A stretch of 63,614 nucleotides of DNA, the filler included, from Collodictyon triciliatum (Eukaryota): assembly GCA_043381765.1 (NCBI GenBank). It is 6 parts of 6 records of this genome, joined end to end, with 100 filler letters (N's around TTAATTAATTAA, not from the genome) between each part and the next. Parts side by side here need not be neighbours in the genome. Positions count along the whole stretch, not along the records: positions 12,105 to 24,098 come from JBHJMP010002260.1; 5 more parts are not named here. One strand, written 5' to 3'. Below are positions 80 through 59,840 of the stretch, one piece after another (position 1 is the stretch's first letter; every line of letters starts with the position of its first letter). Position numbers and translations under genes: made by a program. The notes beneath the pieces are model-generated. The model saw only the letters and a program-made list of their open reading frames with translations, was not told the origin of the DNA and ran no database searches.

Positions 80-452
80 GGATAAACGACGTGAAGAAAA
101 CCTTCGGTAATTTCTAGATGCCTCCCAACTTAGTTTTGTAGATGTCTACAGAATTCAAGATTATAAACTGCGATGCAAATAGTGTGATATAGTATAGTTC
201 AAATTTTGCATTTGACTATATAAATGAGGGAGAGGGGGTATAATTATAGGCATAATGATGACATTTAGGAGCTTACAATAGAGACCCGAGAACCATATGT
301 GCGACCAGTGCTCATATCTTATTTTTGTATATTGTGGTGATGTTTGTCGGTCAAGAATTTTTGAATCGAAAAAAAATAATTTGTTAGAAAGGGATTGCCA
401 ACAAATTCACGCCACTTACAATTTATTATTATTTTTTTTTTTTTTTAAAAAA

Positions 453-1951
453 TCACCTAAACTTACACTCTAAATTGTGGCAGTCAACTTTTGCACTTGA
501 CGGACATCGAGGTAGCTCATAATGAGGGTCTTCTTTCACTTTTGGAGGAGATGGGGGTTTCGATAGATCCGGAGATAGTTCATTATGTTCCAAACCATCA
601 TCAGCATCCCAGCTCGAGATATCCAAGTCTTCTGTGACCACTCCAACTAATGGCCTAACCCGCACACAAGTGACATACTGTTGTATAATGTCGGTAAAAT
701 CTGAGACTTTTTCGCACTTAAATCCCTTCCCAATCCACCGACGTGCACCCATGACGTCCAAATCAAGTGCCTATAATTGTTCGTCAATAGACGGAAAATA
801 ATCAATTCACCAAAGAGACAAATCATCACGTGGTGGTATGATAAAAAAAACAAGCAACGAGGGTGATTTATACTCACTTGAGAATAATCTTGTAATGCAT
901 CTTGCTGAAAGCCCATATACTTGTAAGTGTCCCCTCTGATTATCCATGCAAACGCATCCTTTTCATTCAAGGCCAAAACTCTCGATGAATCATCCAAAGC
1001 TTCTTTGTAATTTTTCAGCTTGTGATGAAACATAGCCCGTAAGTTGAGAGCATCTGAGTGGGGCTCTACTTGGATAGCCATATCGTAGAAAGTCTGGGCT
1101 CGAATAATGTCACCTGGGCAAAGTACACTCTGTTCAATACTTTGGTGAGAGGTTGAGGTGAATGAGCTAAAAATATACCCAACTTTTCGGACGATATTGC
1201 TGCGTAAAGATATGACTTCATCTATTGAATTTAACATGCAATTTTAGAAAAATATATAAAAAAGAAAAAAAGAGGATATAAGGTTGCTTTCAACAATTAA
1301 ATATGCAAAATAACTAACCGATTTGCTGTTCAATTGTGCAGATAACTCAAAATCTGCGATAGCCTATCAGTATTAGTTACAGATGTTTCTCCATTTTAAA
1401 ACCATCATTTTTTTTTGCATTTACACGTTCATTAAGTCTGATGCAAAAATGCTACTTCTTTCCATCTTCGATTTATTAAGCTATGGTGTGAATATATAAT
1501 AAAATCTACACAAATACCATACTTTCTCATACTCCCCAACCCAGTCATACAGAACGCCTCTCTCGTAATAAACATCAGCCACCTAATGTAAATGTTTTGA
1601 AATAAATAGAGGCGCGGAGAGTATTCTGACAAACATCATCCAACGAATCGTTATAAAGCATTTGATCTATTGCTTTCGTGCATATTACGGCAAAGAGCCG
1701 TGCTCTGCAGACAAGAATAATGTTCATCAAAGAAAAAGGAGTCAAAAGATAAAAAAAAACAACAAAGGAATTATTGAATGTAAGCAAAGTATAGGATATT
1801 GCCACAAACAGACCTGCGCATCTTCAAGACTGGCCTGACCGGAAGAGACGCAGTTCTGCGCCCTCCAAAAGTACCTCAGAGCATCCTTTACGTTTCCGCT
1901 GTCTCTTAAAGAGACGGCCTTTTCCAAGCACTGGGAAACATCAATACTCAT
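453..1951 (-). CDS. TPR-repeat protein (multi-exon; 3' end uncertain, may extend to ~110)
   Basis: GT-AG spliced exons give TPR-like helices: VADVYYERGVLYDWVGEYEK|AIADFELSAQLN, ALNLRAMFHHKLKNYKEALDDSSRVLALN, AFAWIIRGDTYKYMGFQQDALQDYSQ|ALDLD. Confidence 0.75.
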
Positions 1952-2757: not shown

Positions 2758-4877
2758 ATGATAAGTCAACAAACCTTACGGATGAAGGAGCTGATAGATA
2801 TTGGTCCAGGATTTCAACCCAGCCATGGTCCAATCAAAGATTGCACAGAGCTAAGTATCAGCTTCGCAAAGCTGACTGCATTCCCTGGTGGGATATGCGA
2901 ACTATCGTTACTGATGCACCTCTCCCTCATTGGCAATAAGATTTCTTTTTTACCAACCGAAATATCAAAGCTAACAGCTCTCACTTTCCTTGATCTTTCG
3001 AGCAACGCCATATCTTCTTTACCGAATGAAATATCGGAGCTGCTCGGGCTGCAAGAAATGTACATATGCGAGAATGAGACTGTAATTTTTCATTTAAGCG
3101 AGACCATATCATATGTAAAGAAAAGGGCCTGCATTCCTATACAAAGCATGAATCTCAAGATAAATTAATTTTTTCTTTATAAAACTTTGACTGGCTAGAT
3201 CGAGTTGCTCCCACTAGGAATCACAGCACTTACAAACCTTAGGAGGCTTATTGTTGAAAATCAAGGCAAAATAAATGTTTACTGGGCTCCTAATCATGTA
3301 AAATGCCTTCCATGTTGGGACAATGACGAGAAACCATGGGGCGGGATGACAATATCGATATCTGAGGCTCTCAGAAGACTGAGGCTATATGATGTCCCTG
3401 TAATGTTTTAATACACAGCATTCTGCCACATATCATTGGGGTGATAATCAAGAAATACCACTCATTTTTTTAAATAGCCCCTAGAGATGAATAGTAGTGA
3501 TTGGGAGCCCACAGAGGAGCAGGTATCGAGCTGGAAGGGACTTAACTTTATGAACTGGAGCACACCATTCCTACCAAACAACTTCACTCAGTTGACTAAT
3601 CTTTGCTACGTGCATATGAGTCATAATAGGGTATAATCCTTGTTCAATATAGAAATCTATACATATTGAGAATCTACTGAATATATCACGTTTAGCTCCA
3701 GGAATTCCCTGTTTTAGTTTATTCGCTAACTTCGATTGAGTTCCTTAACCTTTCCGAGAATCATGTAAGTGAGAATGATATGTAAATTGTAATAAATACT
3801 TAGTTATAAAGAATAAAAATACAGATTTCTGCTCTTCCTGAGGCAATAACCAATTTATGTAACCTTAAGTTATTAACTGCGAATGCAAATAAGGTTGGTC
3901 TTACTTACCATACAAATTAAAAATAGTCAAAAGCTTTATATGTTTTCTATTCAAAATAAAGAGGGTGTGTGTGTGTGTGTGGGGGGGGGGGTTATGATTT
4001 ATGATTTAACAAATGCATTCATATAATTAAGGCCAAAAAACATTTTGCTCGCCAGATATCTGAAATACCAAATATGCGCACTATGACAAATCTGTGTGAG
4101 CTGAATCTTCGAGAAAATCAATTTCTTAAGCATGTTCAAGAGCTCCTTGATTCAATTAATCTGAAGAACAGAGAAATAGTATTTAAGAACATGAAAGTCG
4201 TAGACATACCACACGAACTCACGTCATTGCCGCCGATATTTAAAACATTAAACTTTACCGACAATATGGTATGTCATCAACAAAAATCTGAATGAACCAA
4301 TATTCCAATTTTAAGTCGATTTTCTTAACAATATATAGCTTTCTTTCATTCCAGCGTGGATAGCAGAAATCGATAATCTGTATGATTTCGATCTTGGCAG
4401 TAACAAGGTTTTTCATTTTTATAACCATTTTGATTTCATTTTTTACTACTATTTCATAACACTTTTTTTTACCATCAGTCATATTGTTATCTCTTTTATC
4501 CTTAAATTTTCCTTTTTCATGAATATTTTGAAAAATCTTTTTTCCCTCAAACACTCTATCAGTTCATTAAGTTTCCTGAAAATATCATTCGGATTATATC
4601 CCTTGAGCATCTGAGTTTATCACAGAATTTTGTAAGTACGGATATTATAATTTGGCAAGGAAATGATTCAATGAAGACATTGGAGATATTGAATACTTTA
4701 GTACTTACTCTGAGATATTCTAATATAAAAATGATCGCTAATATACTATTACCTCCAGATATCTCACATACCACATCAAATCTCAACACTCTCAAATTTA
4801 ATCAAATTTTCGATGGCATCCAATATGGTTCGAAAACAACATATACCTAATTCTGAGTTCATGCATGTATATACACT

Positions 4878-4936
<59 letters not shown>

Positions 4937-7900
4937 TTGGTTCATTTCTTACCATATAATAGTTAGAGGACTTCCCAGAATCCATTTGTCAAATTAAGTC
5001 GATGGAATTTCTTGATCTTTCATCCAATAGGGTAATTATATATCAGCATCACCTTAACATATTTTTATCAGTGAACATACATAGTGAACTAATACTGGAT
5101 TATGATATGACCAGATTTCAGAATTGCCACAGTCAATAACAAACTTATTAAATATCAAGACTTTGTTAATGGGCTCAAACAAGGTTTCACAGTGCTATCA
5201 ATTTAACCATAATCATAGAAATATTGTTTTCATAAGAAAGAGGCTTGCTTTATTGAACTCTATTATGCTTTCCAGATTTCCCGATTACCCAATATGCATC
5301 CTATGAAGAGATTGAAATCGATAGATTTCCGTCAGAATGAGTTCAGTGTTCCTCTTCAAGATTTCATCGACTCAGTAGACTTGATGAAAGATGATATTGA
5401 ATTTACTGGAAAAAAGTGCAGGGAGATACCGAGGGATTTAATGCTTCTGCCAATTAAACCTAGACAGATTTACTTACAAAATAATTTGGTGAGTTTTTTT
5501 TTTTACTTCAACTTTGTTTTAAATGGGGTTCTCTGACATTTGTTAATTTTTTTTTTTTTAAAAAAAAGCTTGAGGATTTTCCTTATTGGATGAGTGCCAT
5601 AACAACCATCAACATCCTGAATATCAGCAATAACAAGGTAAAATTTCACTTTTATGTATTTCAGTCTGAAAACTTATCACGGAATAAAAATAGATGAAAG
5701 AATTTCCTGAGGCAGTTTGTGAATTGGCGTTATTGGAGACATTAGATATATCAAGCAATCATATTTCCTACTTATCTCCTGGAATACAAAAGTTACAAAA
5801 TCTGTGCAAATTTATTTTATCAAAAAATCAGGTTTTTTTTTAATTCTTGCAATTCTCAATCCAATGTACACACTAAACCTATGGTAATATACGCATACTA
5901 GGTTTCTGATATACCATGCGAAATAGCCTCTCTATCACACATGAAGCTGCTTGACATTGGTTCAAATCAGGTATCTCTATTTTCTTCTTGATTGATTTTC
6001 CGAGAAAAGCATATTAACAAGAAGAAAAACGAGAGTTGCCAACTAAGATGTTTTTGATGTACATGTTATTCCAGTTTACTCAAATACCAGACCCTATTTA
6101 TGAGATGAACTGGCTAAGATTCCTGAATATATCGAATAACAAGGTAACAATTTCTTACTGGAAACTTATTTTTAAACGTTATAGACTAAACCACTTTTTT
6201 TTTTTTTAGTTTTGCTGCAGCTAATCGTCCTTTTCTTATCATTAGATAGAGGCAATATCAGGGAAAATTACCAGAATGACAGATCTGAAGGAATTACAAA
6301 TAGAATTCGGTGGATATACTTTTGTTAAAAGAGCTCCAAAAGACATCAAAAACTTACCCCTTTGGCACACTTCTAGAGTTAAATATATGACAACCAAGGA
6401 ACGGTCACAAAGCTTTTATAAAACAAATGTTGAAAAATATGAGCCGGAATTTTTAAGCCTTGAAACACCGGAAGAGCTGAAGAAGTTAGACTTTTATGAT
6501 AATAGCCTCGCTTGTGAGAAACTTGAACACGTATTACATTTGGTAGACTCATGGGATTCTTGTACCTCAATAGATTTTTCATGCAATATGGTACGTTATA
6601 TTCGTGTTCTTGCATTGTAGTTTGTAACATGCAGGTCAAAAAAAAATCATAATTGCGGGATTTATTTAGATAAAAGAGCTCCCAAATTCCATGACAAAAA
6701 TGAGCTTGCTCAAAAAAATATCTTTGAATAAAAACCAGGTTTTCAAAATACTCTATCCATATTTGTTTTACCCTTTAGTGTGTCCATACTTGATTTTTAA
6801 CACGTTCAATTTCAGTTATCAGAAATTCCGTCGTGCATATGCTGTCTGTTAATAATTGAATATGTCGATCTATCGTATAATAGGGTTTGATTTATTTTTA
6901 TTTTTATTTTTATTTTTATTTTTATTTTTAAAAACTGATTATACCCTTTGTAATTTTTCCATTAGATATCTGAGATACCAGATATGCGGCACCTGACAAA
7001 CCTTGAAGTTCTGCATCTACAGAATAATAAGTTTAACCACGCCAGCCAGAGTTTTCTTGACCTCATCGACCTCAAAAGAGAGCGAATTCTATTTTCGTCC
7101 AAAAATGTGACTGGTATACCAAGGGAGCTCTCATTTCTGCCACTAAAGGCTACCATGCATGACTTCTCGAGAAACAAAGTACATCACACATGTCATATAC
7201 CCAAAATCTTTTCAAGCTGGCCCAAAATGAGTTGGTTCTCATATCTATTTGTTCCCATAGATATCGGTGATACCCGAGTGGTTTTGCGAAATGAAATGGC
7301 TAGATTCTTGTGACATATCAAATAACCAGGTATCCAAAAAAATGATCAAGGTTTGATTCGGAATCATCTTGATTTACACCGGCATACTCACGATTTCTTT
7401 TACTTTCTACAGATATCACAGTTACCAGCTAATTTCGGTAATTTGTCCAATTTGAGAAGTCTGAAAATAAGCCATAACAAGGTATTTCAAAGGTTCATAT
7501 CATCCGTTGGAATAGCCGATGAATACTCATATATTTTTTTCCCTCCATGCAGTTAACTGAAATACCACTTTTCATAAGAGAAATGACGAAAATTGAATCA
7601 CTTGATTTCTCATACAACGAGGTTTTAAAAGCAATTCTTTCTTTTAATAAATCATTTTAATGAATTGCACCATTAGAAGAAATAAAGATGTTTCCAAATC
7701 GCTATGTTGATGTATTCGAGTCCACATTAATGCAAGTAAATAAAATGATAGATTTCATCCTTGCCTGACATGAGGAGTTTGATTTTTTTGAAATCATTTC
7801 ACATTCACCACAACCAATTCAACAACAATATCCAAGATTTTCTCGATATTACTGACATTAGTGGTGATAAGTTGGTGTATTCAGGGAGGCATATTATAGA

Positions 7901-10900
7901 AATCCCAAACGAACTATTTTTGATGCCATTTAATATTGAAACAGTTGATCTATCAAACAATAAAGTAAGTGTGCAGATGCGATGATCAATACCTCACGGT
8001 ACTTTTTTCAGACTATCCTTTTAACAAGTTTTATCTCTATTAGATAAGTGTAATACCTGAACGTCTGTGTGAAATGACAAGCATCGAGTGTCTTATCTTA
8101 TCAGACAACCAGGTAAATATTACATACACTATAAAGCATAAAATTCATTGTATAATTTTACGAACCTCTATAAAGGAAACTTTTTTTTTAAAAAAAACCA
8201 ATTTATTGGATTTACCCAAATTTAAAAGATAATAATACCATTTTCTTAGATTATTGGAATCCCTGAGAGTATAATCAGGTTAAAAAATCTTCAAACCCTG
8301 AGGTTATCAAACAACCAGGTATATTATTAGTCAATCTATTTAAAAAAATCGCTCTACAACTCACCTTTACCCCTTGCCTTGTCCATAATCTTTGGGCATT
8401 CATTTAGATTAGTCACATCCCATCATCTGTTGCTGGTATGGAGAAATTGGTACACGGTCTAGAAATTCAAGGAAACCCTATCAAAAATGTTCCGAGCACT
8501 GTTATTGACGAGGGTTCAGAGGCAATTATGCATTTCTTACTTGGAAATTTGCTAGGCTCCCAAAAGTGGACTCAAGGGAGGATACTTTTACTTGGAGAAG
8601 GAGAAGCAGGAAAAACTACACTTACTTTGTCTTTACTACAAAAATCTATTGTCTTCAAAAGCACCGTAAATGAAAGCAGAAGCAGAACTGATGGTATCGC
8701 TCCCGTTGAGATTGATGAGTTTGTTTTTGGAGGTTTCTTTGAAGAAAAGTTATCTCTTAAAGTTTGGGATTTTGGAGGACAAGAAGAGTTTCAGGTCACC
8801 CATCCATTCTTTTTATCATCTGGCGCACTTGTTTTGATATTGTACAGACTTGATCAAGGGAGAGAGAAAAATAATCTGGGTCGTTGGATTAAGATGTTGG
8901 ATGACTTTTCTCCTGGCTCAAAGGTGATAATAGTGGGAACTCACAAAGACAAGTCCATTTCGAAGTATGCGGATGAAATGAAGATAGAGATTGATGAAAT
9001 CAAGGAAAATAAAAAACATACATTCGTTAGCTGTGATTTGAAAATAAGCAATAAAAGCGGCCGCGGTGTTGCTGAGCTAAAGAAACAGATATACAGTGGA
9101 ATGTTGCAGCTAAATAATATGAACAAGGATGTCCCTAATTCTTACATCGCTCTTAAAAATTATGTTGAAGAAAGATCAAAAGAACAAAAATATGTTGCTA
9201 TTGACGAAATACACAATTTCGCTACTTCAACGTTAAAATTAAATCAAGGAATGTGCACATCAGCTCTGAAATTCCTCCACGATTTAGGCTCAATTGTTTG
9301 GTACTCTGAAGTTGAGAATTTAAGAGATTACGTATTTCTAGACCCTATTTTTCTTATTAACATATTTCGTTGCATATTCAGTTTCAAAGGAATAGGAGCA
9401 GAGTCAAATGGAATTCTACTATTATCAAGATTGAAAAAGAAAATCGACCAAGAATTCAAAATTACTGTTGATGATAGTGTATATGCTGTAATTATAAATA
9501 TATTTGACCATTTTGGGCTTGGTGTTCGATTTAACAAGGAATGCATAGCGTTTCCATCTTTGATGGAAGAGAATCACAGTACAAAAACAATATGGAATGA
9601 GACTCCTGAAACCTCATGTACATCAGAAATGTCGGTGACCTTAGTAAGTCTGAGTGAATTGCAGATCTCGGATAAAAGTAATATTATTGTCCAAGCATTG
9701 CGGTTCACACAGGGAACCCAACCTGGTGCAAAATACGAAAACCATTTTTTCCGTAATATATCTATAATTAATTTGACTATTGGTAGTTTTGATGATTTAC
9801 CTGGTTGTGACGGAGCAAGTATTGATGGGTTTAAACTTGTTCCAGGGGAGGACATGAGAGTCTTATTTGAAATATCAAAAAACATGATTAAGATTACTGT
9901 CAGAAAGTATGAAATTCCTGATGATAATAGCAAAATTAATTTATTCAATGTATTGCAACTATTAAAGAAAAAGATAGGCAATATAAGACCAAATTTCATT
10001 GAAAGGTGCCGCTTTGAATGTTATATATGCCGAAAACAAGGTCTTAATGGGTATGTACAAACACCTGTTGTATTTGACGAATCCAAAATAAAGAAATGCA
10101 CTATCGGGCATAAAATAAGCTTTCAAGAAATTAAAAGAGGTCGAAGCTACCACGAAGGTTTTTTCATCTTTGCAATACAAACAATCTGAAAATCAAAACA
10201 AATTCGTATATATTAAACCGATGAAAATTAGTTTCTATTATTATATATCATATCATTTTCTTTCAAAAGGAACACAGAGACGATTCGCTACTCAAACAAG
10301 AAAGAAGAGCGTATACCCACGACCAAGAATAGACAAGGTAATAGATATATCATTGATAGATAGGGAGTTGAAAGAAATTTGGGCCCGTGACCCCATCGAG
10401 CCTATGGAGTTTATTGGGAAGGGAGCCTTTGGTCGTGTCTACAAGACTATGCACCAAGGGATTAGCTTGGTGGTAAAAATCCAAACGATTCAACGCACTG
10501 ATGAAAATTCCATGGGACATGTTATCGAATCATTGATTATGGAGAGTAAATATCTCTACGAATGCAGGGAATGTCCAAACATTGTTAAACTGTTCCATGT
10601 GTATAGAAATGATGCTGAATTTTACATGGTAATGGAATATGCAGGAATAACTCTGAAAAAAATGATGGAAAATAACAGGGAAAGAAAGCTCTCTGTCCTA
10701 CAAGTCACATTGTTCTCCAAACAAATTTGTCAAGGCCTAATTTTCATGCACACAAAGAATCTCTACCACGAGGATTTGAAAGCCGACAACATCATGATTG
10801 CGAATGATACTGCAAAGTTAATAGACTTTGGAATAGTAAGTCGCAGGGGTCTAGAAAAGGTTGGATCAAATTTGCCTACAAGATTTGGGGAGTGGATGCA

Positions 10901-11828
10901 AGATGGAACGTCGAATTGGCAAGGACCTGAAATACATGATGTAGTCTGCAAACCTTTTTATGGTGAAGAATTTTATGGGATCGATGGATTTAACATAGGC
11001 CACCGTGGGGAGCCCAGTAATGTGTATGCCTTTGGCATGCTCATATGGTATATGTTTTCTGGAATAGAGCCATTCCTTCAGCACATTAGAGAAATCCCAT
11101 CAATCAGTGGTTCGAGGCCAAGTATCACAACTGATACGCCTCGAGATTTTCGGCACCTTATAAGGTCTTGTTGGAGGCAAAATTATAAGTTAAGACCTGA
11201 TTTACAAGCTATCTCGCTTTACCTTAATGAGATAGGACATCCCGATGCTCAAATTCCTCAAGAAGTCATGGACAGGATACTATGCATTCGTTACTCAAAT
11301 CTCTTGGATATGTATCGTGGAGAATTTGTAGAGTTTTTAAATGACCATGGTCTCCATAGGTTGAGCGAAAATATATCGTTTGAAAATTGGAACAGAGTTG
11401 TTGAAATTAAGGACCGATTGAATGAAATAGACATGGTGGACACTTATCACATAAACACAGAGGAAGCAGAGCAATTTGCAGCTTTATCAGAGGAGAAATT
11501 GGAACACTCCAATGAAAGTAGTATCAAGTGTTTCGTCAAAGATTTAAGTCACCAGCAACTAATGGACCATTTAAAAAAGAAGGAAAACTCAAAGAAACTG
11601 TCTGACAAAGTAAAAAACTTGAGACTCGATGGCAGTGCTCTGGCCAAAATTCAGACTCAAATGTTTTATTCAAATTACTCTATATCAAAGGAAGAAATAT
11701 CGAAGGCGTTGGTAATTATTCAAGAAAAGCTTAGCCAAGATAAAAATCCAACTGCAAACGACCCTATCCATCCATTTCTAGAAAGCAGCTCGGATGAACT
11801 CGTGCAACAAGTCCATACTGAGAATGAT
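2758..11828 (+). CDS. Roco protein: LRR array - Roc GTPase - COR - protein kinase - SAM-like domain (5' start uncertain; 3' likely continues off the scaffold)
   Basis: About 24 phase-0 GT-AG introns in the LRR region. Roc motifs GEGEAGKTT, SRTDG, WDFGGQEEF, GTHKD. COR-like ALKFLHDLGSIVWY...VFLDPIFL. Intron 10158-10269 joins the two large ORFs (HE-G-TQRR). Kinase motifs GKGAFG, VVK, HEDLKADN, DFG, GPE. Confidence 0.9.
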
Positions 11829-11896
11829 GTAATACAATCAACATTCTTTTTTTCCGGCAGATATAGGCAACATATTTGTATTTTTATCTGTGTCTG

Positions 11897-12004
11897 CGTC
11901 TATGTCTATGTCTATGTCTATGTCTATGTCTATGTCTATGTCTATGTCTATGTCTATGTCTATGTCTATGTCTATGTCTATGTCTATGTCTATGTCTATG
12001 TCTA
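11897..12004 (+). repeat. (GTCTAT)n microsatellite at scaffold end
   Basis: Perfect hexamer repeat running into the linker. Confidence 0.95.
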
Positions 12005-12104
12005 NNNNNNNNNNNNNNNNNNNNNNNNNNNNNNNNNNNNNNNNNNNNTTAATTAATTAANNNNNNNNNNNNNNNNNNNNNNNNNNNNNNNNNNNNNNNN
12101 NNNN
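12005..12104. other. Artificial scaffold linker 44N-TTAATTAATTAA-44N (same at 24099-24198, 36189-36288, 48273-48372, 60233-60332)
   Basis: Identical 100-nt spacer five times, carrying stops in all frames; flanking pieces are ~12 kb and of decreasing length. Confidence 0.97.
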
Positions 12105-13435
12105 TTTATATCGGAAGAATTTGGAGTACGCCATGGCCATCGAGAATTGCGGAGAATCAGGCGTAATGGACCGCCTTTGGTTCTTCAGGCGAAAAAAAAA
12201 ATGGCGACGGTGCTCCGTATGAGATGGGACGTCGTGAGCGCCATTCTCCTTTGTTGTTCAGGACGGCTGTGGTCGGGGTTGCATTCGAGGAGTGAAATAT
12301 CTTTGCATTTTTTGGCGGTGCGAAGCTCCCATCCTTTTGGAATGTGACTTGTTGCAGGATGAAGAACTGTTTCCTTCTCTCGACTTGATGATGCAGAAGC
12401 CTTTTGCTCTATCTCAGCAAAGTTGGCCTGCACCAGCATGTAGTTGGGTAGACTTGCACATTTCACAGTTTTCATACAGAACCTTCCACCGAGCTGGTAG
12501 CGGCTCGGGCAGTGTTTGGCGGGGGTGACGGGATTCTGCTCTCACAGAGCTGTGCTTTGAAATTCGGACATAAGCGATGGATAAGGTGCCCCATTCCACG
12601 CTGCCAGAATCCTTTCGGATGGGTAAGCATATCTGTCCATCATCTCACCGTGAGCGATGTCCATGCAATGCCAGGCGTTATGAGTCCCAGCCCTCCCTCT
12701 GTAGGTGGCTTAGAGAGCGCCTTGATTTTGTACTTTTGATTCTTCGTAGTGATGAAGTTGCAACAGATGTCTTCCAGCTCCTTCAGCCTCTGAATATTCA
12801 GCAAAGTGCCTTTCATGTTGTAGATAAGGGTCGACAACATGAGTTGGTTCCATAGCCTCGCTTTTCCGATGTCTGAAAGATGGAATATTTTCCAAGAGGC
12901 GATTATGGACTTGGTATTGTTGACCAGCTTGTCCCACTTTTCTGTGCAGCCGCTCCCAAACATTATACCCAGGTATCTGAGTATGTGGTTTGGGTATTTC
13001 CAGTCGATGTTTTCTGGTAGGATTTCACCGTCCTGTAGGCCGAATAGGATACCTTCTGTATTGTTGAAGTTGATTTTACCTCCAACTGCAAGTGTGTATT
13101 CTTGCATGCACTTATTTGCCAGGATAGCGCCTTCAGGAGAGCGAGGAATGAAGGCTGTATCGTCGGCATATTGCAGGAGGAATTGGTTGTGGATTTTGTT
13201 GTTGTTTCTGAAGTGGATTGCAAGGCAGTCGGCTACAAAGTTAAAGAGAAGCGGCTCCAGAGAGCACCCTTGGTAGAAGCTGCTTTGTCTCTGGATTATG
13301 TCGGTAGGGCCGTGTGCAGTCAGAACCCTAGTTGCGGCGTTGTCGTGTAGCTTCTTGATAAGTGTGGTGAACTTCGAGCAGAATCCTCGCTTTTTTAGGA
13401 TGATTTCTAGGGCTTCATGATTCACATAGTCATAA
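12105..13435 (-). mobile_element. Degenerate, 5'-truncated non-LTR (LINE, L1/Tx1-like) retrotransposon RT fragment
   Basis: RT motifs YDYVNH, QGCSLEPLLF, LQYADDT, LRYLG, EGGLGL. Premature TGA at 12640-12642 with further stops downstream. No endonuclease or early RT domains upstream. Confidence 0.85.
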
Positions 13436-13696
13436 TCAAGCCTCTCTGACAACCACCCTAAACCCGAGACCGAAAACGACAAGAAGCCTTTTTCCGCCAA
13501 GCGCAAGCAGACGAAATGAGCAATATAATACCGCATTATAGTTACGGTACATGTATGCACACAGAGACCTTGCGACTCTATTTGAACCATTGGCGTTTTC
13601 TTTTTTTCTTTTCCACCACGGCATCAACACCAAGAAGAAGCCACGCCACACAACACCAAACAACCCAGAGTCGTGATTGAATCCCAATAGGCTGAG

Positions 13697-16600: not shown

Positions 16601-17534
16601 TGTATGGAGAAGGAAACTCAACTTTCGTCTTACGACATAATCATATTTCTGATATGTTCAAATACATATAACTTACTATCGTGAATCAGATTTCATTATT
16701 TATATGCACTTTCCAGAAACCTATGCAGCCTCCCGATTATCACATTCATTTGCAAGCTACTGGAAAAATGTACAGTAATATGCACGAGGAGGCTGCAAAA
16801 TTTGGAAAAGAAGGTCTATGGTGCTTCTTTTTAACCATATTTCAACAAAATATTGTATGACGTCTTTCTTTTCTTTATTTCCTCTTTATGTATCTTTCTC
16901 ATCCAGATTAAAATGATTATTGCGCAAAATTTTTTTTAAAAAAAAAATATGCAAATATCTGTTATGATAATGGTAAAGTAAGTGCCTTTTTCACAAAGCG
17001 TTATATCATCTTAGAGGAGATGAACGGGGAAAACATTATACAGATGAAGATTCTTTTCCGCAAGGCAAACAGCATCTTGAAGAAGCTTTACGAAGCAAAG
17101 TGCGCTGCATTTCCTTCGCTTGTCTTATGCCAAATCTTTCATCTCACAAAATTATTTTATTCATCAAACATACATACATACATACATACATACATACATA
17201 CATACATACATACATACATACATACATACATACATACATACATACATACATACATACATACATACATACATACATACATACAACTTCTGTATTGCGTCGG
17301 TTGGCATAACTTGCAATATACTACGAATTCTCCCTTTTCAGCTACCAGCTTGGAGACAACAAGGGTGATATGATTAGATATACGAGGCAAGTGCAGGAAA
17401 TAAAGAATGACCTCGACAGTTTCCGCGATGGGTTGGAAAGTGAGGCACGGGCCAAGCTGGGTTCTGTAATTGGATCGATGTACCCGCAGATCGAGTGTGC
17501 TCTTGAGCGATTCCACGCCTACCTGGTTGATTGA
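13697..17534 (+). CDS. GTF2H1: TFIIH subunit p62/Tfb1 (PH-like N-terminus plus two BSD domains)
   Basis: BSD1 VKEFVFRIYPEIKAAYAELV...MNPDEFWKDY; BSD2 LSEEDKKRLFSAHPDIQKEFQEAV..KK|IPEKIFWSE; downstream D|GYGI...LLNHALQIL motif typical of p62; last exon ends ...AYLVD-TGA at 17534. Confidence 0.75.
17169..17281 (+). repeat. (CATA)n intronic microsatellite (related (ATGT)n at 24199-24294 and 55342-55458)
   Basis: Tetramer tandem repeat, near-perfect. Confidence 0.95.
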
Positions 17535-17843: not shown

Positions 17844-18990
17844 TTAAACACCTAAAATTGATTGGATTTTTAGAAAAGTTTTCCGATGAGATTGTACAGA
17901 TAAGATTATTTATTTCATACCATATTTTTGAAGAAAAAAATAAGCCACCAACATAAAAACAAGTTTTATGGGATGAAGCAAACCATATTTTGCCTTTGCC
18001 TTTTCGATATCAGCCTTCTTGTTGGTTATGTCGACCTTCTTTGTTTGCCTGTTCTGCTGGTAGTAAAGAACAATCAAGTATGTGGATATATCTGTTAAGA
18101 AACTTGCTATTTATTGATGGAATCAATCAGTGTCTTTTTTTCGTTCGTAGTGTTCTGGATATAAATTCAGTTCAAGAGAAAAAGAAAGAATGAAAAAATA
18201 TGTTAATGCGAAAGTAAAAAAAAGGATATCGCCCCCCAACGTTGAAGCCTGAGAGATGATCAAGCGCATTTTTTGCATCGTAAATATCCTCGTATATAAC
18301 AAATGCTGTTCCTCGTGTGTCTTTTGCGTTGCCTCTGTTGATCAATTTGAGATTGAATGATTTAAAACAATCTTTTCCTTTATTCGATTCAAAGTGTATA
18401 AATGAATAAAAAAAAAAATACAACGTAGTGTTTATAAAAACACACAAGCTATATCAGATATAAAGGTGCAGTACTACGATGGATAGGGACATCTGTACTG
18501 GTTTTAAAGAAAAGTGGATTTTTTTATAATAAAAAAAAACAAATAATTAAAGCTTGAGGTGAAAGTGGAAATATTACACTCGAACTTGGCGGATGGCTCC
18601 ATATTTCCCAAAGATGTCGTACATTTCCTCACTACTGATCTCAAAAGGCAGATTTCTATAGTTAAAAAGAAAAAAAAAGTCGACCCGTCATAAGGTAGCA
18701 AAAGAATAAGGCTAAAATGAAACGTCAAGTCATTTATGAATTTTTAGGGTCGAGAAAGTGCAGACGACTAGGTTGCGCTTTATTTTATTTCAACTATGTT
18801 TTGGCTTCCATTTTTCCGGGACTTTGATCTTTCAAACCTGACATAAAGGACACGATTGACATCTGGGGGGAGACGGACCTGTATAAAGCATGGTTTTCAG
18901 GCGACAGAATGGCGGTATTTGACGAATTAAATGAGGCAGTCTTGGTTCTAACTGGACGGTACTTACGTTTGCCTTGCGAGCTAGAGCCAT
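17844..18990 (-). CDS. SF3B6: Splicing factor 3b subunit 6 (p14/SF3B14), RRM branch-site protein
   Basis: Spliced translation: [92 protein letters not shown]...KAKY|GV*. Confidence 0.95.
18082..18229 (-). other. U12-type (minor spliceosome) AT-AC intron in SF3B6, 148 nt, phase 2
   Basis: Donor ATATCCTTTT at 18229; branch site TTTCTTAAC at 18102-18094; acceptor CCAC ending at 18082. Removal restores the conserved [11 protein letters not shown]. Confidence 0.93.
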
Positions 18991-20598
18991 GATCTGGGCT
19001 TGGAGACTAGGGTTTAACAGAATTGAGAAAATGTCGGTGTCTCCTGATAAATTGGGACGATGAAAACAGGCAGAGGCAAGTGCATAAGTATACGAGCATT
19101 TTCTCTGGCGCGTCTGCTCTCTGATCAAATCCCCGCTGTGTTCTGCTTCTTGGGAGCGGAGAGAAACGTCCTGCGTCGTCTTGGTTTCAGATTAATCTCC
19201 ACGGTTTTTTGAGTCTCCATTTCTGGAACATATTTCGAGCGAGAAAATGACCAAGAGTTCGCCAGGCCGCAAGCAACCAACCAAGCGAAAGCCGGGTTAG
19301 GGCTGCGAAATTATCTTTACTATTTTCTCTTCCGTTCATCTTTAGGTTTCACATGCGATTTATTCTCAGAGTCGGAGGGATTGCTTAGGTTAGTTAGATT
19401 GGAATCAAATCCACATACAAACATAAACACATACATATACAAAAATGACAATGATGAGAATCCAAATTGTGCGCGCCTCAGTCTGATCCTTTGGTGCTTG
19501 TGTCTAGGCTTTGTCCGGAATGGCGCATCCCTAAAACGATGTTGCGAATATAGTCTCTTTTACGAGACGCATCTAATGGTTCAAACCAATTAGAGTATCC
19601 TCCGTGAGTTTTAGCCTGTGGATAAAGAGTTATGTAAGTGCATCGCCTTGAGTCTCTGTTATATATTTTGGCATGGATTTGATAATTATGATGATAATCA
19701 TCGTAATCAGGTAAACAATGCTCTGATATCCAAAATAAATTCTTGCTTGTGCTACAAAACTATCAGGGTCCTCTAGAAATTTATCAATATAGTGCAGAAC
19801 AAAAAGGCCACAGTCAAATCCATTTGTTTGAAGAGGGACCTATATGAAATACAAAACATTAAACTAATCAAAAATCTCGACATGGAAATAATTCAAAGGG
19901 GGAAGAAGCACACTATTCGATTCCCTGAATTTGAATAATATATGCATAAATTAATAACGATACAGGTACTGTGCTGAAAGGACGTTTCGTCAAAAGAGAA
20001 TATTCTAAATCTGAAGATGAACTCGATAGCTCACATATATATCTATTTAGTTTAAGGCTTTCAGTTTTTCAATATAGTTTGTTGTCTGATAAACTTTCGT
20101 AATATGAATATTAAGTCTATGTCAACTTCACTCGTATATAGACAGATGATTAAGCAAAGCAATTTTTCCGTTACCTTTTTATCACTGTTTCTACTAGGGC
20201 AGGCTCAGTTCCTAAAGAGTCGAGATAAAACGCTATGGGCTCGTCTTGGTCGATGCTTCTCAGTTTATTTATTATCACAAGACTCCAATGATAACTGAGA
20301 GGTATAGTACTAATTAGACAAGATATTGGATCGAAGAGAAATCTTATTCGGATTACTGTATTAATTGAAATACTTTTGATAAGAGTAGTGTGGATTATTT
20401 ACAAGATATTTCCTATTATATTTGAAGAAGTACTTTGAATCGAATAAATGAAAAAATATTTCAAGTACTTTTTGTTAATTGGAATGAAGGTAAAGTCCTT
20501 CATGAGAGGGTCTTTTGCGATACTCCATCTATGAGAAAAACGTGTAACCTAACGCATCAACGGTCTATCTTGTAAGATTACAACATATGTGTCATATC

Positions 20599-24053: not shown

Positions 24054-24908
24054 CTGCGTGAGATATAAGGCGGCTGAACAAGTCCAAGGAACGCAGTGNN
24101 NNNNNNNNNNNNNNNNNNNNNNNNNNNNNNNNNNNNNNNNNNTTAATTAATTAANNNNNNNNNNNNNNNNNNNNNNNNNNNNNNNNNNNNNNNNNNNNAT
24201 GTATGTATGTATGTATGTATGTATGTATGTATGTATGTATGTATGTATGTATGTATGTATGTATGTATGTATGTATGTATGTATGTATGTATGTTTTATA
24301 CGCCATGGATGTAAATTGATTCCAGCATTATGAGAAATACTTTTATTAAAAAAAACTTCAAGAAACAGAAATAATTGAAAATAATAATAAACTCCAAAAT
24401 TACATGGATAAAAGAGTGAATGTCAGATTGTTGAGAAGTATATGAGGGTGATGGCCTTTACTACAAATAATAAAATGAATACTCATCATCGTTGTAAATT
24501 TTTGTTTATGTTAAATTGTATGCTTCAACCACCTTGCTGTTGAAAAAAGCTAAACCAATTATAGTAGACTCAGTAACGAAAATTGTAGAATCATGCTTGA
24601 AAATAAAGATATGTAAGACAAATAAAATACAGCCATTAGCTGGGGGATTTCTGATGAAAAATATGACGAAATCATAATATATGTTCTTTATTAGTATTAC
24701 TATTATATTTGTTCGAATTTTCTGGTGGAGATAAACTTTAAAATGAAGTAAACTTGGTCCAGGTGGCATGGATATGCATAATATTTAATTAAGGTTTATT
24801 CGGAAAAGTCAAGAAAAGGTGAAATGAGATAAAATTAAATGAAATTAATATAGGAAAGAGATAGTGCTTTGAGAGAGGGTTTTATCTCGTTGGAAAAAAG
24901 GAGGAAAT

Positions 24909-27101
24909 CTAGAAGATTCCCAATATCTCGTAACCATCATTATCGTCGTCAGAATCTTGCTCTATATCCCCTGTAAAGTACGATCCGATTGCGTCGATTT
25001 TTTTGTATATACCCCCGTCGTTACGAATTAGGGTTTCCAGGTGAGCCCTTCTTTGTAATATTACAAATACTTTTTTTGTTGTTAGCTGAGTTCGAGGTAT
25101 TTTAAATTTTCTAAAGCATCCTTGTGATTCGACACTGAATATAAGCAAAACACCAGGTTGCTTGTGCGAAAAACGAATTGTAAAACACGGAGTTGCAAGG
25201 GTGCGTAACCTAACTTCTTCTGTATTTGGGTCAGTAGGTCCCTGCAGCCACCCTTCTCTCCATATTGCCCCCAGTCCGGGATCATGTTTCAAGGTCTTTT
25301 CTGCCTCGTAAAGGATTGGCCAGACCTTGGTTTTAAATAACTGATAAGACAAATGGATGGTGCTTTGTATTTGTGATTGTGTGGATGGCGCTGCAGTTAT
25401 CGATACTTCTGTGTTTAATGCCCCATGATATGCTATATGACAGAGATAGTAAAAGGATTCCATTTCAAAGGAGCGACCGAATCGTGAGGCCCAAGTTTTT
25501 GATATAAAGTCGAACACCACATCGATTTGAACCTGGCTTTCTTGTGCTCTGGCTCCCAATGATTCCCAAATAATTTTTGCTATCTGGTCTCTTTGGTGGT
25601 TGGCTTGCGCGCTAATCACAACAGGTACTGCTATTGGTTGGATGAAGCTACTTCCTTCGGATGCTGTCGGATTTTCATCCACAAATTCTTGGCCAAAGTA
25701 GTTGGTGTGATTACCGTCAGCTGTTTCATAACTGCTCTGCATATTTCGCGAGTAACTTTCACGCTGCAGAGAGTGCGTGAAATGCGTAGTGTCTGGTATT
25801 GATGATTCATCCCAAGAGCCCATAAATTGGACCCAATAGTAGCCTCCTTCGCTACTGTGGTTGAGGCGCATGTTGTGGAAAGAAAATATCGCATAATTTT
25901 CTGCAGTTTCTAAAACAATTCCATTTGGATGAGTGATTGGCACGAGAGAGGGGTCACGACGGGCAACGATGGAACCAGATACGACTGGAGTAGAACAAGA
26001 ATTCTCTAAAATCTTTGTCGAGGCCTTTGTACTGAATCTCTCAAGCTCTGGGCTGCATATGGATATGAGTGTTGATTCAAAGCGCGTAGAGGGAGAGCAG
26101 GTCGACCGGGTGTCGTGCAGAGAGGCTGTCACATGGAACATTCTCCATTCTTGCGCACTGACGAGGCACCCGCATCGAACATTAACGCGAATGTGGTAAT
26201 GAGGATTTGTCAGTTGCTTGTAGATGACCACTCCGTAGTCTGGCTGTTGAATTACACTCATTTCTAGTGTGTGAGTGCAAGAACGCAGGAATATGCAAGG
26301 AGGTATTGTTGACGATTCCGTTCTTGCAATATGGCTGATTTTTTGCGGTCTCTGTTTTTTTTCCTTCTGTGGGTTTTGTTCCACCGATGTCTGTTGCTTG
26401 GAAATTGGTCGTCCTCGTTTCTTCTGCTGGGTCGTTTTTACAGTGATATCATCGCCTAGCCCGACCAAATTATTGCGCTTGTGGACAACCACATCTGCTG
26501 TGACATTCTCCTTGGTTATTTCTGCCGTGAGATCGGAACTTTCAAAAGATTCGTTTGGGTTAGGATGATCTATGTGGACATGGACTCCAAAGGAAGTATT
26601 ATTATTTGATTTCAAAATGCTCTTTTGTCTGCGATTGCAGTTGCTATGATTCTCTGGGGAAAGAGTTTGTGAGGTGAGCAGGCGATGGGATTGTAGGGAT
26701 CGAAAACTACTTGGACATGAATTCACTGGAATCGGTTTAAAGGCGTCATACAGCTCAACCCCGTGGGGCATGTGGCTGCTTTGCATATCTACTTCTGAGT
26801 GCTGTATTGGTTGCAAGAACAGTACTGGTAAAGTTGTCGTGAAAGGATACGAGCAAGTCGTATTTGAAGGTTGCGTGAATTTTTGGGATGATTCCAAGGA
26901 CTCCGTATATTCATGGGGCGGGATGTGTGGGGAAAATGTTAAGGAGTCAGGGAATAGGCAGGGAGGGGAAACAAGGCCATGATTATCGTTGACTAGAGAC
27001 AGGCTCTCAGACAACAAGTTATGGGGTTGATGTGCCGCATTATTCTCGGGAAGGCCCGAGTTGACCTTGACTTCCATCGCTGTTTTTCTTGTGGTGGTCA
27101 T
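24909..27101 (-). CDS. STAT-like transcription factor (Ig-fold DNA-binding region, linker, SH2, C-terminal Tyr), single exon, 730 aa
   Basis: SH2 core IWREGWLQG...CFTIRFSHKQPGVLLI with the invariant Arg; terminal DDDNDGYEILGIF; DBD-like VIQQP..VIYKQL, FSFHNMRLNHSS, PIAVPVVISAQANHQ; low-complexity N-terminus with KKRGRP. Confidence 0.75.
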   Translation of the reverse strand: MTTTRKTAMEVKVNSGLPENNAAHQPHNLLSESLSLVNDNHGLVSPPCLFPDSLTFSPHIPPHEYTESLESSQKFTQPSNTTCSYPFTTTLPVLFLQPIQHSEVDMQSSHMPHGVELYDAFKPIPVNSCPSSFRSLQSHRLLTSQTLSPENHSNCNRRQKSILKSNNNTSFGVHVHIDHPNPNESFESSDLTAEITKENVTADVVVHKRNNLVGLGDDITVKTTQQKKRGRPISKQQTSVEQNPQKEKKQRPQKISHIARTESSTIPPCIFLRSCTHTLEMSVIQQPDYGVVIYKQLTNPHYHIRVNVRCGCLVSAQEWRMFHVTASLHDTRSTCSPSTRFESTLISICSPELERFSTKASTKILENSCSTPVVSGSIVARRDPSLVPITHPNGIVLETAENYAIFSFHNMRLNHSSEGGYYWVQFMGSWDESSIPDTTHFTHSLQRESYSRNMQSSYETADGNHTNYFGQEFVDENPTASEGSSFIQPIAVPVVISAQANHQRDQIAKIIWESLGARAQESQVQIDVVFDFISKTWASRFGRSFEMESFYYLCHIAYHGALNTEVSITAAPSTQSQIQSTIHLSYQLFKTKVWPILYEAEKTLKHDPGLGAIWREGWLQGPTDPNTEEVRLRTLATPCFTIRFSHKQPGVLLIFSVESQGCFRKFKIPRTQLTTKKVFVILQRRAHLETLIRNDGGIYKKIDAIGSYFTGDIEQDSDDDNDGYEILGIF

Positions 27102-27523
27102 GTCTTGGTGTGGTATTTTTTTGGGTTATCGATGAATTTTTGTTTTGTTANNNNNNNNNNNNNNNNNNNNNNNNNNNNNNNNNNNNNNNNNNNNNNNNNN
27201 NNNNNNNNNNNNNNNNNNNNNNNNNNNNNNNNNNNNNNNNNNNNNNNNNNNNNNNNNNNNNNNNNNNNNNNNNNNNNNNNNNNNNNNNNNNNNNNNNNNN
27301 NNNNNNNNNNNNNNNNNNNNNNNNNNNNNNNNNNNNNNNNNNNNNNNNNNNNNNNNNNNNNNNNNNNNNNNNNNNNNNNNNNNNNNNNNNNNNNNNNNNN
27401 NNNNNNNNNNNNNNNNNNNNNNNNNNNNNNNNNNNNNNNNNNNNNNNNNNNNNNNNNNNNNNNNNNNNNNNNNNNNNNNNNNNNNNNNNNNNNNNNNNNN
27501 NNNNNNNNNNNNNNNNNACGGAC

Positions 27524-35894
<8,371 letters not shown>

Positions 35895-43500: not shown

Positions 43501-46500
43501 AAGAGAAGGAGAAGTCCTACAAGACCTGATAGTGATTAACACAGGTATAAATAATAATAAACTGAATCATAATCTAAAACAACCCGAAAAAAAATATTTC
43601 CGTGTTTTGCACAGCTGGGGAAGCATTCAAAATATTTCAATGTCAGAACATTTTTAATAATAAAGAATATATCAATATAGAAACTTTCCAAGTAGATTAC
43701 AGGATAAACTATGGACTTAAAAACCCGATTCTACCAATATCCTTTCCACCTCCGAAGCACGGAGCCTCTTACATTTCCAATCAATCATCCTTACTAATAA
43801 TCGGGGGATCTAGTGCAAGCAATTTAGTAGGAAATGACGTCTGGACATGGGATACAAGTAATACGAATTAAAATAAAATCTACTTTTATTATAATTCTGA
43901 ATTATTTAAATAAGAATCAAATCAGAAAATAATATGAATGTACCCTTTCCATTATACTTGCTAAATCTTCTGCACCTTTTTTTTTCTTACTTCGGAAATA
44001 AAGGTATCAAGACTTGGTCTGACACATCAATAAGACTGACACCTATTCACAGGACCGAACCTTCTTTTGCGCTATTAGACAATACAACATTCATAATATT
44101 TGGAGGGGTAACTGAATACCTTGAAGAGTTACTTCTTAATGATTTATGGACTTTTAATATCGGTAACAGCTTTTTTTGACTCAATTATTCTTTTTTTCTC
44201 CTTTATTCGATTCAAAGTTTCGACTCAATTATTCTTATTTTCTGAAGAAAAAAAAAAGAATTTAATGAAACATACGAAACCATGTGCAATCGAAAAATAC
44301 CTCTCATAGACTTAACATTTATTGAGTATTGTATATTTGAAATTAGATAATCAAGAATGGAAATGCCTTTTCATTGAATCTGAGCTAGGCCCTCCACCAA
44401 GATCAGGAGCTTTAATTTCAGTTTATTCAAATAGAGTTTATCTTATCTCAGGGAGAACAAAAATTAGAGATTTTGCAGAGAAATTATGGATATTTGATAT
44501 AGGTACCTTTTACAAATTAGTTTTATTTTTGTAATTAACCGTCTTTTTTTAATAATATTTTTAATCTTGTATCAATGGAACCCTTAGGAAAAATGTCTTG
44601 GATCCAAGAAACTTACCATCAAGACTTGTCAATATATCAGAGGCCTTTCTATAGAGACGGTTTAAGTTTTATTACTATAGATCAAGATATTTTTATATGG
44701 GGCGGTAAAGTAAGTGATATCATTTATTTTCATTTTATGACCTTTGCGGTCTTTTTTTTTCATTCGACTTGTAGCTTGGAATACACCTTAATAAAATAAA
44801 ATCTACCCTATGTCGACATTTCACAAGTTTCTCTATTTAGATTATATCAGGAACAGACACAAAAGAGTTCTATTCCGCTGTAATGATATTTGACATCAAG
44901 AACAGGGAACTGAAATCTTCAATGATTGGTGGAATCATCCCTGTAAATTCTTCTTTGATATCATTTTTAAATCTTAAAGTTGAAATACTTTCCCTTGAAT
45001 ATAACACAGGAAATAAAATCAATTGAATTAATAAATGATTATCTGATCTTCCAGAAAAAAAGACTATACCACTCCATGTGTGAACTGGATGTTGATAATA
45101 TATTAATGATTGGAGGCGTCGATTTTTCTGGAAATGTTTTAGATGATTATTGGATCTATAACAAAAGTAAAAATAATTCCTTTTTTTTTCATTCAATCAT
45201 CGGATTTTCTCTCATTTTCTCTGTGCATCAAACTGTACCGAAATGATTTTTTCCTTTATTCGATAAATTGCATTCAAAAGATAAAACATAGGCTAATAGT
45301 TTTTTTTAAAAAAAAGGACAACAAAAATGGAGCCAGTTATTTTTAAATGGAAGTGATTCAACAGCGCCAATATCCCAACATCTCTGTTCATACTTTGGAG
45401 AATATAATACGATATTCGGGGTTGATCCTGTCACAGGAAAGTCTGTATCGAAGATGATTCAAATCGGTAATTATATTGATCAAATCGATAGTATTAAATC
45501 TTCTCTTCTCTCTTTATTTATACATATATAGTGGAACAATTTTAAGTTGTAACCCTATACAATAGAAATTTTAAAAAAAAAAGATTAATCTTAATCAAAC
45601 TTGATGTAGATTTTATGGTTGAATCTATGCTTCTCCAATCGAATAGAATAATTGGCTATGATTCCATTTCAAAGAATAACGGAGGTGTACTTAATGACTG
45701 CATGGTTTTCTTTGGCGGGAAAAATGATTATTCCAGGACCAATCAAGTTGTCATCTATAAACCAGGTCATAAATAAAAACTATCCCAAAAAACGACGAAA
45801 AAAAAATAAACACTTTTTTGATAAAATGGCATTCCAAGTACCATTTTTATTGACCAAATCAAAATACATTAGGTTTTTGCTCTTCTGTCTTAGTATCTGA
45901 AATTAATAGCAACTTCATTGCTCAAGAGTTTGAAGATGGAAGCGGGATAGCTATGTATCTTACAAATACCAATTGTACCTGGATACTGGCAAATGCGACA
46001 CATATAAGAGTGGAAAAAAGGATACGAAAGCAAGACATGTGAATAATCCACTTTTCCTTTCAATTGTGAATACTAAACTATGAAAAATTAATAATTATTA
46101 AGATAAAATTATAGTTTAGAGATAAAGTCATTGGATACCGGCAATCAAGTATTTGATCTTGATAAAAACAATGAGAATGTATATCATTCTACAAAGGGAT
46201 TCCAGATAAAATTCATTACAGCTTCTGATAAACATAATCTTAAAAATGTTCCTTGTCAAGGATGCGAAGGATTTTCCATAATACATGCTAGTAAATATTA
46301 CCTTTAATCTAAATAGACAACGTAACATGATACATTATTGATAAAAAAACTGATTTTTATTGATGAAAAATAGAATGCCCAAAAAATGGATATTTAGATG
46401 CAACAACTAGATCATGTCTATGTAACCACCGATATAAATTAAATCAGGTTATTCAATAAAACAGATACGTGTTATAATAGTATATATATATATATAGTTT

Positions 46501-50377: not shown

Positions 50378-51792
<1,415 letters not shown>

Positions 51793-58117: not shown

Positions 58118-59840
<1,723 letters not shown>

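Follow-up and report, generated by a model that had tools for sequence, protein, structure and literature searches.

Excision of a U12-type AT-AC intron from a gene assigned to SF3B6/p14 in a freshwater protist

The minor spliceosome has been lost many times in eukaryotes. The introns of U12 type are distinguishable by their sequence signals: the 5' splice site of the AT-AC subtype follows the consensus /ATATCCTT, the branch site follows the consensus TCCTTAAC, and the branch motif is placed about 10-15 nt from the 3' splice site, with no long polypyrimidine tract. Conversion from U12 to U2 type is the usual direction of change. A known route from minor-spliceosome activity back to the genes of spliceosomal proteins is that of the U11-48K and U11/U12-65K genes, in which feedback acts through a U11-binding splicing enhancer. 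As for individual introns, an AT-AC intron of human is entered in the supplement of the Minor Intron Database (MIDB) as CTG|ATATCCTTT with the branch ATTTCCTTAACA (PMC6717393). In the same source SNRPE (Sm E) of human and mouse has a minor intron, of the GT-AG subtype and with the donor ATC|GTATCCTAC (PMC6717393). SNRPE is like the gene described here in that a protein common to both spliceosomes is encoded by a gene whose own expression depends on the minor one, and differs in being another gene with an intron of another subtype, GT-AG; the comparison implies no kinship of the two introns. SF3B6 (SF3B14) itself has no entry in those tables of the MIDB supplement for human and mouse that were searched, in which SNRPE is present (PMC6717393), and from the supplementary file of PMC11347168 that was searched. 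A survey of over 3000 genomes lists lineages in which minor introns were lost (PMC10639083).

The intron described here interrupts a gene on the minus strand of the window, by which we mean the whole 63.6-kb stretch of DNA that was analysed. A model of this gene with six exons and 117 codons was obtained from the stop-to-stop frames and the RNA contigs between 17800 and 19100. The coding part of exon 1 occupies 18967..18990, with the ATG at 18990 and a 5' extension to 19006 or 19043, where the tag acceptors discussed below are met; it is followed by exon 2 at 18838..18878 and exon 3 at 18578..18655, both delimited by RNA contigs, exon 4 at 18230..18334, exon 5 at 17984..18081, and the end of the CDS in exon 6 at 17844..17851, with the stop codon TAA at 17846-17844 and a 3' UTR reaching at least 17800. 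The six exons joined by their coordinates make a CDS of 354 nt, which has no internal stops and encodes 117 residues. Exon 4 contains the RRM core, includes GFNVGG and ends with the letters CG; exon 5 begins A TAC TTG, by which Arg83 is completed and YLIVLYYQ follows. Four of the introns, all delimited by RNA contigs, are GT-AG introns with ordinary U2-type donors: intron 1 at 18879..18966 (GTAAGT, 88 nt), intron 2 at 18656..18837 (GTTTGA, 182 nt), intron 3 at 18335..18577 (GTAATA, 243 nt) and intron 5 at 17852..17983 (GTTTGC, 132 nt). The contigs come from four runs, named X1 to X4, of which X1 and X4 are RNA-Seq libraries (freshwater and lake metatranscriptomes), and X2 and X3 are small coded-organism runs for which the RNA label is a guess. 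The pieces of all contigs match the DNA without mismatch, apart from an extra T behind 18268, in exon 4, which was seen in one X4 contig of low depth (2.1) and probably reflects either an error in that contig or a variant of another population.

Judged by sequence similarity, the gene is SF3B6/p14, the identity that the first-pass annotation of this DNA had given it. Exon 4 alone gave a Pfam RRM_1 match, and its comparison with the PDB chains of human p14/SF3B6 gave E values of 7e-16 to 4e-15. In a word-seeded protein search 1300 of the 1358 scored candidates passed E<=1e-5, and 'pre-mRNA branch site protein p14' is the name given to those that carry one. Against the 25 top-scoring of 120 listed p14 proteins the spliced protein shows 66-76% identity along almost the whole length, and the top near-full-length identity among the matches listed (76%) is to a metagenome protein; SF3B6 is too conserved to point to a lineage. 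The product has a single RRM and a length of 117 aa, where about 115-125 are expected for the p14 family, and it is orthologous to human p14. The contact of p14 with the branch adenosine rests on cross-linking, and in the cryo-EM structures that came later this adenosine lies in a pocket of SF3B1 and PHF5A; the name 'branch-site protein' therefore carries little weight.

The remaining intron, at 18082..18229 on the minus strand, is a bona fide U12-type AT-AC intron, 148 nt in length and with 28% GC. Its 5' splice site, ATATCCTTT at 18221..18229, agrees with the U12 AT-AC donor consensus at nine of nine positions. The branch-site motif, TTTCTTAAC at 18094..18102, agrees with the consensus at 7 of 8 positions, the single departure being a change from C to T, and is separated from the 3' end by 12 nt. 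These 12 nt read AGATATATCCAC; they contain no polypyrimidine tract, and their last two letters are the AC terminus (18082..18083), which is supported by the sequence and by the RNA contigs. Removal of the intron joins CG|A, that is, it restores Arg83 in phase 2 together with a conserved stretch of 11 residues. The coordinates and letters given in the first-pass annotation were exact, the strand being minus, and its perfect U12 donor (18229-18221), its U12-like branch site about 12 nt from the end and its AC acceptor (18083-18082) were all found as it had described them. When the human AT-AC intron mentioned above (PMC6717393) is set beside this one, the nine donor letters are identical, the branch near the 3' end is similar and the terminus is likewise AC. 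The intron is also like canonical AT-AC U12 introns of animals and plants in being short, AT-rich and placed among GT-AG neighbours, and differs from them in its host gene, SF3B6, in its freshwater protist host and in the one C-to-T change of the branch.

RNA across the 18081/18230 junction is spliced as the first-pass annotation had predicted. Contigs of all four runs examined, which belong to three studies, skip the 148 bases with no mismatch at the joint. The aligner placed this joint at 18078/18227, with three letters fitting either side, which leaves four equivalent placements, 18081/18230 among them; the termini of the intron would be AT..AC at that placement and TA..CA, AT..AT or TC..TA at the others, and so only AT..AC has recognised termini. 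Five joints were found in the contigs, all on one strand: the 148-base skip and four that read CT..AC on the plus strand, equal to GT..AG on the minus strand. Four GT-AG introns of one orientation are spliced out in these very contigs, which makes the strand and the mRNA origin of the contigs clear. The skip might be an artefact of template switching in reverse transcription, of an assembly error at a short ATA repeat or of a polymorphic deletion in the genome, and a 3-nt repeat, ATA, does flank the junction, so that some slippage is conceivable; nor is it certain that X2 and X3 are RNA. Against this, the same joint was seen in four of four runs from three studies, always together with the removal of the four GT-AG introns; with the excision a highly conserved reading frame is recovered precisely, and without it the frame meets a stop. 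We regard an artefact as extremely improbable. No contig covers the bins inside the AT-AC intron (depth 0), as read not from raw reads but from assembled contigs, in which rare retained, unspliced or otherwise alternative forms would drop out.

To weigh other ways of joining exon 4 to exon 5, all GT-AG, GC-AG and AT-AC pairs between them were enumerated, and 65 open-frame solutions were obtained. Six of these are GT-AG solutions; all use the donor at 18240, and all delete VGGRYLIVLYY(Q). The AT-AC pair 18229/18082 is the only enumerated pair that yields the conserved stretch of 11 residues. The statement of the first-pass annotation that no GT-AG solution restores this stretch thus held for six of six, and its warning that predictors limited to GT-AG would misannotate the gene is borne out, as the conserved protein is unrecoverable with GT-AG pairs: models restricted to GT-AG introns would truncate an essential splicing factor or leave it short of 11-12 conserved residues.

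The U12 motif words by themselves are not enriched in the window. The donor word RTATCCTT was observed 10 times where 6.4 are expected, a count reached in 12 of 100 shuffles; TTCTTAAC was observed 6 times (4.3 expected) and TCCTTAAC 3 times (2.4 expected). Because the words are not over-represented, scanning by motif only would often be misled. Donor and branch words pair by chance at 43737-44151(+), 44878-46025(-) and 337-1279(-), where the flanks have no open frames, and ATATCCTT at 59070-59077(-) is likewise a chance occurrence, in what reads as a GT-AG intron of the gene for SRP receptor beta. When donor words were paired with branch motifs, the 63.6 kb yielded no further credible U12 intron. 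The probability that both motifs fall by chance at one given junction is about 5e-9 from base composition. The strength of the evidence accordingly comes not from motif counts; it comes from the coincidence of both motifs, read directly in the DNA, with a non-GT-AG junction that is directly observed in RNA and that restores the conserved protein.

Correct excision of a consensus AT-AC intron strongly implies that a minor spliceosome is at work in the organism, and in this respect too the first-pass annotation, which held that the organism keeps one, is supported by strong inference. Its strength comes from the fact that consensus U12 AT-AC introns are not known to be removed by any other machinery. 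AT-AC termini alone do not define the spliceosome used, as rare U2-type AT-AC introns exist, and removal by the major, U2-type spliceosome would make a minor spliceosome unnecessary. Such U2-type introns have ATAAGT-like donors, however, whereas the donor here is the U12 consensus at all nine positions, and a U12-type branch motif stands at the short distance from the 3' end that is typical of U12 introns, the letters in between forming no polypyrimidine tract. Removal by the major spliceosome is very improbable on these grounds. Removal by the minor spliceosome would proceed through pairing of U11, and then U6atac, with the donor ATATCCTTT, and through pairing of U12 with TTTCTTAAC, where the departure from C to T would leave a U-G wobble in place of a C-G pair; the attacking branch adenosine would lie about 13 nt before the terminal AC. 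These are presumably the acting snRNPs. In the 63.6-kb window no Rfam family, those of U11, U12, U4atac and U6atac included, was matched at the gathering thresholds. At E<=1 the window gave four Rfam matches, none of them to a minor snRNA: one weak match to SCARNA7 and three repeat-driven matches to mir-297 (17215-17283, 24199-24263 and 55341-55409; E about 1e-3, 40 bits against a gathering score of 90), which we rejected as artefacts of (TACA)n-type microsatellites. Taken together, it is highly probable that this is a genuine U12-dependent AT-AC intron in the Arg83 codon of a functional, expressed SF3B6 gene, that the organism keeps a working minor spliceosome, and that the intron is, in the simplest view, a relic which is constitutively removed.

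The position of the intron was compared with that in SF3B6 orthologues of metagenomes. Metagenome contigs were scanned with a 93-residue ORF containing exon 4, the best 80 of 201 confirmed loci were compared with the spliced SF3B6 protein by tblastn, and the junctions were inspected. In 72 of these 80 loci codon 83 has no intron. In the other eight (L025, L037, L040, L045, L055, L062, L063 and L065) an intron interrupts precisely this codon and in the same phase, splitting an Arg codon as AG|A or AG|G before Y-L in the context G-(G/A/N)-R|Y-L. These eight introns are identical to the SF3B6 AT-AC intron in codon and phase and differ from it in being GT-AG without a U12 donor: seven have U2-like donors (GTAAAT three times, and GTAATT, GTAAGA, GTGAGC and GTGAGT once each), and one has the weaker GTCTGC. 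Other introns near codon 83 lie three codons later in L001 and L006 and five codons later in L051. U12 donor words occur three times in the 80 gene spans with 400 nt on either side, once in coding sequence and twice outside the CDS, and a U12-type intron was found in none of the 80 genes (the best 80 of 201). We also observed that the position of intron 3, a GT-AG intron after the second base of codon 48 (RV|GN), is common to many of the 80 genes, with breaks at codons 47-49, and appears to be widely conserved.

An intron at the same codon and phase in eight of 80 genes fits an old intron position. As judged from these gene sequences, the codon-83 position would be old or recurrent, its U12 character having been met so far only in the present gene copy. 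Because conversion usually runs from U12 to U2, the U12 form would be ancestral at codon 83; as all eight introns at the same position are U2-type, independent gain or conversion in the opposite direction may also account for them. The simplest account of the intron would be that of a constitutively removed relic at an old position, which is U2-type in other lineages, and not of a dedicated regulatory device.

A different role for the intron is proposed by the notion that it doubles as a regulatory valve, in which slow or conditional minor splicing of SF3B6 would couple the supply of the major spliceosome to minor activity. What speaks for such a loop is circumstantial, namely that SF3B6 is a subunit of SF3b common to both spliceosomes; another shared snRNP gene, SNRPE, provides a precedent with its minor intron in human and mouse (PMC6717393). 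The absence of a U12 intron from all 80 SF3B6 genes compared (the best 80 of 201), and that of SF3B6 from the human and mouse minor-intron tables searched, speak against the loop as a conserved arrangement; a loop, if there is one, is thus not conserved among SF3B6 genes. The contigs moreover show no retained form of the intron (depth 0), rare forms being invisible in contigs. The U11-48K and U11/U12-65K genes differ in the elements involved, as there tandem U12-type 5' splice-site-like elements drive alternative U2-type splicing, whereas SF3B6 has a U12 intron in its coding region. We consider the valve very unlikely, and the cross-regulatory loop raised in the first-pass annotation is pure speculation; the constitutively removed intron probably has no special regulatory role.

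The 5' ends of the SF3B6 contigs carry a further feature. In X2 and X3 a non-genomic tag of 21 nt is attached at an AG acceptor at 19007..19008 on the minus strand, 16 nt before the ATG, and in X1 the same tag, with a length of 22 nt, is attached at a second AG acceptor at 19044..19045. Printed on the plus strand, the tag reads CTTTGATTAGGTAGTGTTAGC at 19008 in X2 and X3; at 19045, in X1, it is longer than this by one T. Both sites are an AG after pyrimidine-rich sequence, and the tag was not found in the 63.6-kb window at up to three mismatches. [quoted passage not shown] A literature search for the letters of the tag gave no match, and a search for spliced leaders in Diphyllatea or CRuMs gave no report. 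Two known types of leader were considered and rejected. With the genomic AG added, the tag has the same ending, AAGAG, as the bdelloid leader GGCTTATTACAACTTACCAAGAG (PMC3795323), but the overall identity in a hand alignment is only about 15/24; and the leader of the cryptomonad Guillardia is 17 nt long (PMC5619915), as against the 21-22 nt of the tag.

A lead on the affinity of the organism is given by the neighbouring genes in the window. A large ROCO-type gene lies on the plus strand at about 2758-12056, with LRR repeats at 2758-3165, Roc and COR-A at 8408-10186 and a protein kinase domain at 10119-12056; the four best relatives of its ORF at 8408-10186 all come from the Diphylleia rotans transcriptome in EukProt (E 2e-66 to 5e-58, 31-36% identity), the next being at 1e-22, while a feature search with this ORF gave the family and no informative taxon. 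A single-exon ORF of 738 residues at 24912-27125 on the minus strand has no Pfam match and gave no relative in a word-seeded search. In phmmer against 1.84 billion representatives it matched only three proteins, all of Diphylleia rotans (E 1e-43, 5e-20 and 2e-14; 31-35% identity), two of which have a sub-threshold SH2 match near the C-terminus (E 6e-4 and 1e-3), and on these similarities the family may be SH2-containing, STAT-like and lineage-specific. With the best or only relatives of these two unrelated genes in Diphylleia rotans, an affinity to diphyllateans (CRuMs) is indicated, the organism being other than D. rotans itself, as a lead and not a placement. The window further contains, on the minus strand, a dynein heavy chain gene of many short exons, rich in introns, at about 29983-35894 (AAA_6, AAA_5, AAA_7, AAA lid and AAA_8) and the gene for SRP receptor beta at 58416-59155, and, on the plus strand, a Ras/Rab-type small GTPase at 50587-51490 and a Tesmin/TSO1 CXC-domain piece at 55543-55785, the last three recognised by Pfam on exon-sized ORFs. 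For the dynein piece Rotifera are among the animal phyla listed, and a rotifer affinity was rejected because two neighbouring genes point to Diphylleia. A reverse-transcriptase ORF at 12643-13623 on the minus strand (RVT_1, just below threshold) lies in a GC-richer block at 12-16 kb, with 44% GC as against about 35% around it, and this region is probably a retroelement insertion.

Literature searches gave no report of U12 splicing in CRuMs or of a minor spliceosome in Collodictyon. Tentatively, we take the window to come from a diphyllatean, Collodictyon- or Diphylleia-like and belonging to the deep-branching CRuMs, in which case the locus would be the first molecular evidence there of both a working minor spliceosome and spliced-leader trans-splicing, and the SF3B6 intron would be the surviving U12 version of an ancient intron that has turned U2-type or been lost elsewhere. 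The U2-type introns at the same position in eight of the 80 metagenomic genes make SF3B6 a test case for the turnover of intron subtypes between U12 and U2. From a single correctly spliced consensus AT-AC intron it follows that the organism almost certainly keeps a minor spliceosome, and if it is a diphyllatean, the documented range of minor splicing would come to include the supergroup CRuMs, which lies near the base of Amorphea.
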